Counted from the first letter of the stretch, positions 51,910-53,940 are shown. The stretch: 64,000 nt of DNA from Mycobacterium sp. (GCA_051006775.1 JBPCSX010000148.1); one strand, 5' to 3'. Notes: generated from the letters alone by a model not told the origin. Made by a program: numbers and translations.

Positions 51910-53940
51910 TTAAACGTCAAGGAAGCGAACGTCTTTGGCATTGCGGGTAATGAAGCTGCGGCGGGCTTCGACGTCGTCGCCCATGAGCACGGAGAACAGT
52001 TCATCGGCGGCGGCGGCGTCGTCCAAGGTGATCTGGCGCAGCACACGGACGGACGGATCCATGGTGGTCTCCCACAGTTCCTTGGCGTCCATCTCGCCGA
52101 GACCCTTGTAGCGCTGGATGCCGTCGTCCTTGTTGATCTTCTTGCCATTGGCCGCGCCGTGCTCGAGCAAGGCGTCGCGCTCCCGATCGGACTAGGCGAA
52201 CTCGTGTTCGACTCGCTGCCACTTGAGCTTGTACAGCGGCGGTTGCGCCAGATAGACGTGGCCGCTTTCGATCAGCGGCTTCATGAACCGGAACAGCAGC
52301 GTCAACAACAGCGTCGAGATGTGCTGGCCGTCGATATCGGCGTCTGCCATCAGAACGATCTTGTGATACCGGAGCTTGGTGAGATCGAACTCGTCGTGAA
52401 TCCCGGTGCCCAGTGCGGTGATGATCGACTGGACTTCGGTGTTCTTCAGAACCCGGTCGATCCGGGCCTTCTCGACGTTGATGATCTTGCCGCGCAGCGG
52501 AAGTATCGCCTGGAACATCGAGTCGCGGCCGCTCTTCGCCGAGCCGCCGGCTGAGTCACCCTCCACCACATACAGTTCGCACTGCTTGGGATCGGTGGAG
52601 CGGCAGTCGGCCAGCTTGCCCGGCAGCCCGCCGATATCGGTCGCGCTCTTGCGGCGCACCAGCTCACGCGCCTTACGGGCGGCCATCCGGGCCTGAGCCG
52701 ATGAAACCGCTTTATTCAGAATGGTTTTGGCATCCGACGGGTTGGCTTCAAACCAGTGCGTCAACTGCTCGTTGCAGATCTTCTGAACGAAGGACTTGAC
52801 CTCGGTGTTGCCCAGCTTGGTTTTCGTCTGGCCCTCGAACTGCGGCTGCGCCACCTTCACCGATACAACAGCGGCCAGACCCTCACGGATATCGTCACCG
52901 GTGAGGTTCGGGTCCTTCTCTTTCAGGATCTTCTTGTCCTTGGCGTATTTGTTGACGACGGTGGTCAGTGCCGCACGGAAGCCTTCCTCGTGCGTGCCGC
53001 CCTCATGGGTGTTGATGGTGTTGGCGAAGGTGTGGACCGACTCGGAATAACCCGAGTTCCACTGCATCGCGACCTCGACCTCGTGGCCCTCACCCTTGCC
53101 GGAGAAGCCAACAATGCTGCTGGTGATCGGTTGCTTGGTGCGGTTGATGTGCTTGACGAAGTCGACCAGACCGCCGGGGTAGTGGAAGGTGCGGTGCATG
53201 ACCTTCTTGGCCGGCGTCGACTTCTCGGCCGCGATCTCGTCGGCGGACCTGGGTGCTTCGGCGGTGTCGCTGACGACTTCGTCGACCACTTCCTCGGCGG
53301 TCACCCGTTCATCGGTGAGATTGATGGTGAGGCCCTTGTTGAGGAATGCCATCTCGCGAAGGCGTTGCTCAACGGTGTCGAAGTCGTAATCGGTGGTCTC
53401 GAAGATATTCGGGTCCGCCCAGAATCGGATCGTGCTGCCGCTCTTCTTGGTGGCCTCGCCCTGTTTGATACTGCCGGGAATGGAATTGTCGTAGGTCTGA
53501 AACCACTGGTAGCCGTCGCGGCAGATATCAGCCTCAAGCCGGGTGGACAGCGCGTTGACCACCGAGACACCCACGCCATGCAGACCACCGGAGACCTGGT
53601 AGGCACCTTCCTCGAACTTGCCGCCGGCGTGCAGCACGGTCATGACCACATCGATGGTCGGGACGCCGGACTCGTGCATCGCCACCGGGATACCGCGACC
53701 GTTATCGCTGACTTCCACTCCGCCGTCGTCGAGAAGTCGGACGTCGACCTGATCGGCGAATCCAGCCATCGCCTCGTCGACGGCGTTGTCGACAACCTCC
53801 CACACCAGATGGTGCAGCCCGCGCCTGCCCGTCGACCCGATGTACATGCCGGGCCGTTTGCGAACAGCCTCAAGCCCCTCGAGGATCTTGATGGAGCCCG
53901 CACCGTAGTCATCGTCTTGTTTCTTCTTCGGGGCAGCCAC
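51910..53940 (-). CDS. gyrB: DNA gyrase subunit B interrupted by an in-frame TAG at 52192-52194
   Basis: GHKL ATPase and TOPRIM ([16 protein letters not shown]). After HEFA-TAG the same frame continues SDRERD...QRYKGLGEM...VRFLDV. Confidence 0.95.

Follow-up and report, generated by a model that had tools for sequence, protein, structure and literature searches.

A lone in-frame amber codon in gyrB of a draft Mycobacterium assembly is probably a wrong consensus base

The gyrB locus and its interrupted reading frame

The window analysed here is a 64,000-nucleotide stretch of Mycobacterium sp. DNA (GCA_051006775.1, JBPCSX010000148.1) in which the genes dnaN, recF, dciA, gyrB and gyrA follow one another in the same order as in relatives. 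The gyrB frame on the minus strand is broken by one internal TAG codon (Table 1). Around it the minus strand reads TTC GCC TAG TCC GAT CGG GAG, or F-A-*-S-D-R-E, and the base at plus-strand position 52192 is C. Two open reading frames consequently span the gene, one at 52192..54057 (621 aa when counted from the first possible start) and the other at 51910..52170 (86 aa from a TTG start). Alignment to 676-aa homologues suggests that the GTG at 53940 is the likely true start, which makes the stop codon 583. The read-through translation (P0001) has 676 residues, matches 676-aa GyrB proteins from end to end at 96% identity, and contains the Pfam domains HATPase_c (40-176), DNA_gyraseB (257-426), Toprim (455-566) and DNA_gyraseB_C (607-664). 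Because the stop precedes DNA_gyraseB_C, a product ending there would be without the whole C-terminal domain. Translation confirmed the 93 open codons downstream of the stop that the initial annotation had described; this tail ends in RFLDV before the terminal TAA, and PF00986 scores 98.8 bits in the 86-aa tail ORF.

Table 1. Features of the gyrB locus and other interrupted genes of the assembly. Unprefixed coordinates are those of the window; prefixed ones are contig (C) or locus (L) positions.
Feature	Coordinates	Strand	Remarks
gyrB, DNA gyrase subunit B	51910..53940	minus	676 codons including the internal TAG; likely start GTG 53940, terminal TAA 51912-51910
In-frame TAG, gyrB codon 583	52192..52194	minus	Tyr (TAC/TAT) in relatives; between Toprim and DNA_gyraseB_C
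gyrB stop in contig coordinates	window 52192 = C148:62169
Intact gyrB codons past the TAG (93)	51913..52191	minus	open frame; whole DNA_gyraseB_C domain inside
Possible restart for 86-aa tail	52168..52184	minus	GGGAG 52184-52180, 9-nt spacer, in-frame TTG 52170-52168
gyrB codon 231, AGG (Arg)	53248..53250	minus	Lys in 120/120 homologues
gyrA, 840-aa intact ORF	49354..51876	minus	immediately downstream of gyrB
secA1 TAG	C53:12798-12800 (L251:3535-3537)	minus	Tyr, also in M. tuberculosis SecA1 and Thermus SecA; about codon 233
pimA (phosphatidylinositol mannosyltransferase) TAG	C177:67937-67939 (L254:2377-2379)	minus	codon 81, AAG (Lys) to TAG
ResIII/DEAD helicase TAG	C72:8152-8154		Ser TCG in 13/17 relatives
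Acyl-CoA dehydrogenase TAG	C103:5520		Gly-Tyr of HGG.GY motif; paralogue-level scan and HMM search
CobW-like GTPase TAG	C15:17918-17920		paralogue-level scan and HMM search
MFS transporter TAG	C143:2346		paralogue-level scan and HMM search
Further TAG candidate	C254:1566		possibly Tyr-derived; tblastn alone
Two TGA candidates	C119:6481, C53:3262		flavin monooxygenase GxGxxG motif, and a Trp codon; tblastn alone
TAA candidate	C250:7388		HNH/13E12-type gene, Tyr-derived; tblastn alone
1-nt deletion, frameshift in fadD-like gene	C57:~46855
Second type IIA topoisomerase pair (GyrB-like and GyrA-like domains)	C42:4889-9271 (L002, L003)		33% identical to GyrB

All 19 relatives compared within the same genus and order, and all 39 gap-free aligned loci, have TAC or TAT at the stop position, and residue 583 is Tyr in each of the 120 closest GyrB homologues, which bears out the initial annotation's claim that an amber stop (TAG, 52194-52192) replaces a conserved Tyr. 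The TAG therefore differs by one base from a Tyr codon that every relative compared has kept. Measured against the same 120 homologues, the window's GyrB has Arg231 as its sole private residue and the 93-residue tail has none at all; K231R may be a second base error in gyrB, or it may be a real private change. This lack of decay argues that the lesion either arose very recently or is not real. A different lesion was seen in the relative G004 (locus L017, ~1820-1835), in which gyrB has a +1 frameshift eight codons after the same Tyr, the frame being lost after SDRERDG and resuming in frame 2; such lesions thus occur in drafts of the genus, where a broken gyrB is no rarity.

If the TAG were real, GyrB could conceivably be made as two polypeptides, residues 1-582 and an 86-residue tail begun at the TTG at 52170, that assemble non-covalently. 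The stop does lie between Pfam domains, the tail ORF holds the whole of DNA_gyraseB_C, and a Shine-Dalgarno-like GGGAG stands 9 nt before the in-frame TTG, 24 nt past the stop; both this motif and the tail ORF are present as first annotated. The break would also fall in what we take to be the loop that in E. coli GyrB is enlarged by an insertion of ~170 residues, a place that may tolerate a break. Restarting at the TTG, however, would lose the stretch YSDRERDA, in which relatives show little or no variation, and the proposed restart signals are ordinary coding variants: among 39 relatives with intact gyrB, TTG or GTG occupies the restart codon in nine and CGGGAG occurs in three. Splits at this site were found in 0/120 close homologues and 0/39 loci, and the literature yielded GyrB inteins but no natural split gyrB. 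We consequently regard a divided GyrB, which the initial annotation had offered as an option, as very improbable.

Capacity to decode TAG

We compared stop codon usage at 637 orthologous gene ends. The present assembly uses TGA at 373, TAG at 206 and TAA at 58 of them, and the complete relative G011 uses TGA at 377, TAG at 184 and TAA at 76. TAG is an ordinary terminator here, without sign of avoidance, so that the initial annotation's view that the genome is not globally recoded, which had been drawn from named genes, holds on a genome-wide set of ends. The RF1 gene prfA is intact and free of stops (494.7 bits against a cut-off of 423.25), and RF2 is also present.

A tRNA with a CUA anticodon, the suppressor that had been suggested, was found in none of the 48 tRNAs that ARAGORN detects in the whole assembly; as completeness is 93.6% and two CAT tRNAs that would be expected are absent, such a tRNA may have escaped assembly. 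The near-cognate tRNAs Tyr-GTA, Gln-CTG, Lys-CTT, Ser-CGA, Leu-CAA, Trp-CCA and Glu-CTC have normal anticodons, and the three tRNAs of the window (Leu-CAG, Ala-TGC and Ile-GAT) are, as first annotated, not suppressors. Pyrrolysine machinery was likewise absent from the assembly, where the best PylS_Cterm match reaches 22.5 bits against a cut-off of 178 and ARAGORN reports no tRNA-Pyl. No stimulatory RNA structure was found 3' of the gyrB stop, where the predicted fold is less stable than shuffled controls (z = +1.4). We also considered a ribosome hop between the GCC codons 582 and 590 and rejected it, as it would delete eight conserved residues and has no structure after the stop to accompany it.

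A second gyrB, another option raised by the initial annotation, did not materialize in the assembly. What is found instead is a 33%-identical type IIA topoisomerase pair (Table 1), which presumably resembles the atypical TopoNM of Mycolicibacterium smegmatis. Its GyrB-like frame of 748 codons itself ends in TAG, and the GyrA-like gene follows 14 nt later in the same frame. Nothing suggests that this pair could supply gyrase activity.

Other lone stops in the assembly

Open reading frames from 2.8 Mb of G011 were used as tblastn queries against the whole assembly, the main scan covering 935 orthologues and 337,710 aligned residues (~1.0 Mb of coding sequence). Lone in-frame stops with well-conserved flanks in the true coding frame were found in four of the 935 orthologues, namely gyrB, secA1, pimA and a helicase gene, and all four are TAG. 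The secA1 frame reads IISGPSDSASHW*SEFARL around its stop, and in pimA the ~300 remaining codons are intact. Both genes are single copy: SecA2 is only 44% identical to SecA1, and other GT4 enzymes are at most 34% identical to PimA. In mycobacteria gyrB, secA1 and pimA are essential. Three single-copy essential genes cannot all be null, and hence their stops are either not real or read through. Since secA1, pimA and others carry the same kind of lone stop, a mechanism specific to gyrB is unnecessary; a divided GyrB, in particular, leaves the TAGs at pimA codon 81 and about codon 233 of secA1 unexplained.

Paralogue-level scanning added TAGs in an acyl-CoA dehydrogenase, a CobW-like GTPase and an MFS transporter, for each of which HMM searches give one TAG inside the domain; among matches to the acyl-CoA dehydrogenase domain, only 1 of 57 has a stop. 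The helicase TAG was likewise borne out by a second tool, and together with these three it makes four non-essential genes with a lone TAG. Further candidates came from tblastn alone, among them two TGA and one TAA, and a fadD-like gene has lost its frame to a 1-nt deletion (Table 1). In total there are about eight in-frame TAGs among more than 900 genes, at codons for Tyr, Tyr, Lys, Ser and others. A reference-free search for interrupted frames by GC3 signature gave 184 candidates, mostly adjacent genes in the same frame, and was set aside. Several frameshift and stop candidates were likewise discarded as antisense 'shadow' frames or as 5' extensions of stop-to-stop ORFs.

Several in-frame TAGs in conserved genes are what would be seen if TAG had become a sense codon in this lineage, by reassignment or through pyrrolysine. 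A count of only about eight among more than 900 genes argues against this, as do the 206 orthologous genes that end in TAG, the presence of RF1, the lack of a tRNA(CUA) among those assembled, the sub-threshold PylS match and the inconsistency of the replaced residues. The reassignment and pyrrolysine reading is effectively refuted.

A less drastic possibility is that the TAGs in gyrB, secA1 and pimA are real and that UAG is partly read through, so that enough full-length product is made. The decoding tRNA would be a suppressor encoded in the unassembled 6% of the genome, or else near-cognate tRNA-Tyr(GUA) or tRNA-Lys(CUU), which would insert the original residues while UAG still terminates a third of genes. 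In-frame TAGs in at least three essential genes that are otherwise fully constrained would fit such a situation, as would the occurrence of three or four of the TAGs at Tyr positions, which is above chance, and the small genome (3.5 Mb, compared with 4-6.7 Mb in the genus) could mean weak selection. There is also a precedent, the closest from real biology, in E. coli J53 CipR27, where suppressor activity keeps a gyrA S83 TAG allele viable (Vinue and Hooper 2016, PMC7207127). Against it stand the intact RF1, the normal near-cognate anticodons, the lack of a CUA anticodon among the 48 tRNAs and of a stimulating RNA structure after the gyrB stop. Moreover, with 32% of genes ending in TAG, an efficient suppressor would lengthen ~1000 proteins, and the replaced residues differ (Tyr, Lys and Ser), so that no single inserted amino acid restores all of them. 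Candidate TGA and TAA interruptions exist too, and the same gyrB TAG is absent from 241 million metagenome records searched with the degenerate pattern EFA*SDRERD. On balance we consider real read-through improbable, if less so than a divided GyrB. Were the stops real, this mycobacterium, with three essential genes interrupted by amber codons, would offer a striking example of read-through in nature.

Origin of the stops and comparison with known systems

The assembly that contains the window's contig amounts to 3.52 Mb in 254 contigs, with 2.2% contamination, an N50 of 21.5 kb and smallest contigs of ~2.5 kb. When the assembly was compared with itself, dozens of contig ends (for example C146/C200, C124/C141 and C153/C171) proved to share 117 bp exactly, a signature of a de Bruijn graph short-read assembler. 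Many other contig ends overlap by 200-1486 bp at 90-98% identity, which reflects co-occurring strains that were co-assembled and broke the assembly. It is thus the draft consensus of a population and does not represent one finished clone. Uncultured Mycobacterium MAGs are the nearest named sequences, and the genome is very probably a metagenome-assembled Mycobacterium. Among 5.8 billion proteins, the nearest GyrB sequences are metagenomic, with up to 96% identity across the whole protein and 98% across its N-terminal part, and all are intact at 676 aa; their DNA is 83-86% identical, which places them in other species. Exact matches to the dciA-like protein, GyrA and the truncated gyrB products were sought and none was found, and a 51-nt exact pattern carrying N at the stop site matched no metagenome contig. 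None of these searches brought up another assembly of the species.

Strain variation was also observed elsewhere. The five ENA metagenome scaffolds that carry the GyrB protein P0004 (L104-L108), from the nearest metagenomic relatives, come from five samples and represent strains that are 98.6-99.4% identical to one another and share one GyrB sequence. Structural differences among them lie around dnaA, gnd and recF, where some samples have truncated gene calls or none; we examined the truncated genes as possible internal stops and rejected them as strain-level structural differences. Within the present assembly, two copies of tRNA-Ser(GCU) (C182:2773-2863 and C226:12983-13073) are two transversions apart in the anticodon arm, and one of the two changes disrupts a stem pair. 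This difference is either a strain variant or an assembly error.

We therefore turn to the reading that we favour, with a probability of about 0.8: the gyrB TAG would be a wrong consensus base in a fragmented, strain-mixed, short-read metagenome assembly. The plus strand at 52192 would carry C in place of a base that gives a Tyr codon, and the living bacterium would make ordinary full-length GyrB. Had the assembler taken up an allele from a minority or dead subpopulation, the outcome would be indistinguishable, and we count such an allele as an artefact of the same kind. That the TAG is not a real biological feature is, overall, at least as probable. The initial annotation had also judged a single-base error most likely, and the lone stops in secA1, pimA and other genes support and strengthen that judgement, short of proof. 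The stops are indifferent to essentiality and no single amino acid accounts for them, which points to sporadic consensus errors; stops that ignore essentiality are expected of errors and disallowed by natural selection. We infer that the stops of this assembly are errors and not real alleles.

Four stops in ~1.0 Mb of aligned coding sequence, with nonsense changes making up 2.6% of random substitutions, imply a substitution error rate of about 1e-4 per base. This would be high for an Illumina assembly unless coverage is low, yet plausible for low-coverage, strain-mixed de Bruijn assemblies. With the present codon usage, 62% of random nonsense changes yield TAG, and four of four would be TAG by chance with a probability of 0.15. 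The all-TAG pattern of the best cases is therefore uninformative, as this expectation follows from GC-rich codon usage.

Part of the pattern is less readily ascribed to chance. Stops derived from Tyr codons make up about 5 of 11, compared with ~16% expected (p ~0.02; gyrB, secA1, the dehydrogenase, possibly C254:1566, and the TAA of the HNH gene), and the gyrB and secA1 stops share the context TAG TCC GA. Purely random errors do not predict the Tyr excess and the common context, which suggest a context-dependent miscall or, less likely, biology. It is on account of this leftover non-randomness that we keep a small share of probability for real read-through. A motif-wide conversion of TACTCCGA to TAGTCCGA was considered and rejected, given that 111 intact TACTCCGA copies remain and k-mer densities match those of the relative. 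C-to-G is not a classic Illumina error type. We speculate that a miscall bias toward G might lie behind the Tyr-to-TAG excess: changes to G create stops almost only from TAY codons, and GyrB K231R, too, replaces A with G on the coding strand. G overcalling has been reported for two-colour Illumina chemistry (PMC8002175); a search for poly-G artefacts at the contig ends found none.

If the wrong-base reading is correct, the assembly has gene-breaking base errors in the core genes gyrB, secA1 and pimA. This would call for caution in counting pseudogenes, in gyrB-based typing, and in inferring gene loss or genome reduction for this small-genome Mycobacterium.

P0001 aligns end to end with the full-length M. 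tuberculosis gyrase chains 8s7k and 6gau, and the M. tuberculosis GyrB, like that of the window, comprises residues 1-676 with the same four domains. The interrupted codon, like the C-terminal domain that a truncated product would lose, falls within the region of the M. tuberculosis cleavage-core construct (5bs8, residues 426-675). The window's GyrB differs from M. tuberculosis GyrB in the TAG at codon 583 and in Arg for the invariant Lys 231. The gyrA allele of E. coli J53 resembles the present case in that an in-frame TAG lies in a gyrase subunit gene where TAG is a normal terminator. That allele, however, belongs to a laboratory strain under quinolone selection with a demonstrated suppressor, whereas for the gyrB described here no suppressor tRNA was found among the tRNAs of the assembly and there is no selection rationale.

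A further parallel comes from draft bacterial genomes, in which counts of internal-stop 'pseudogenes' follow assembly error and low coverage (Cooley and Wright 2024, PMC11017572). Its authors could draw on reads and on ground-truth genomes, whereas we infer the error in the present assembly from its sequence, and the Tyr-to-TAG excess seen here is not explained by it. In other respects the two cases agree. The spurious pseudogenes of that study, like gyrB, are otherwise perfectly conserved genes with a lone single-base stop, and in both cases several such stops occur in a fragmented, probably low-coverage assembly with no regard to whether the genes are essential.
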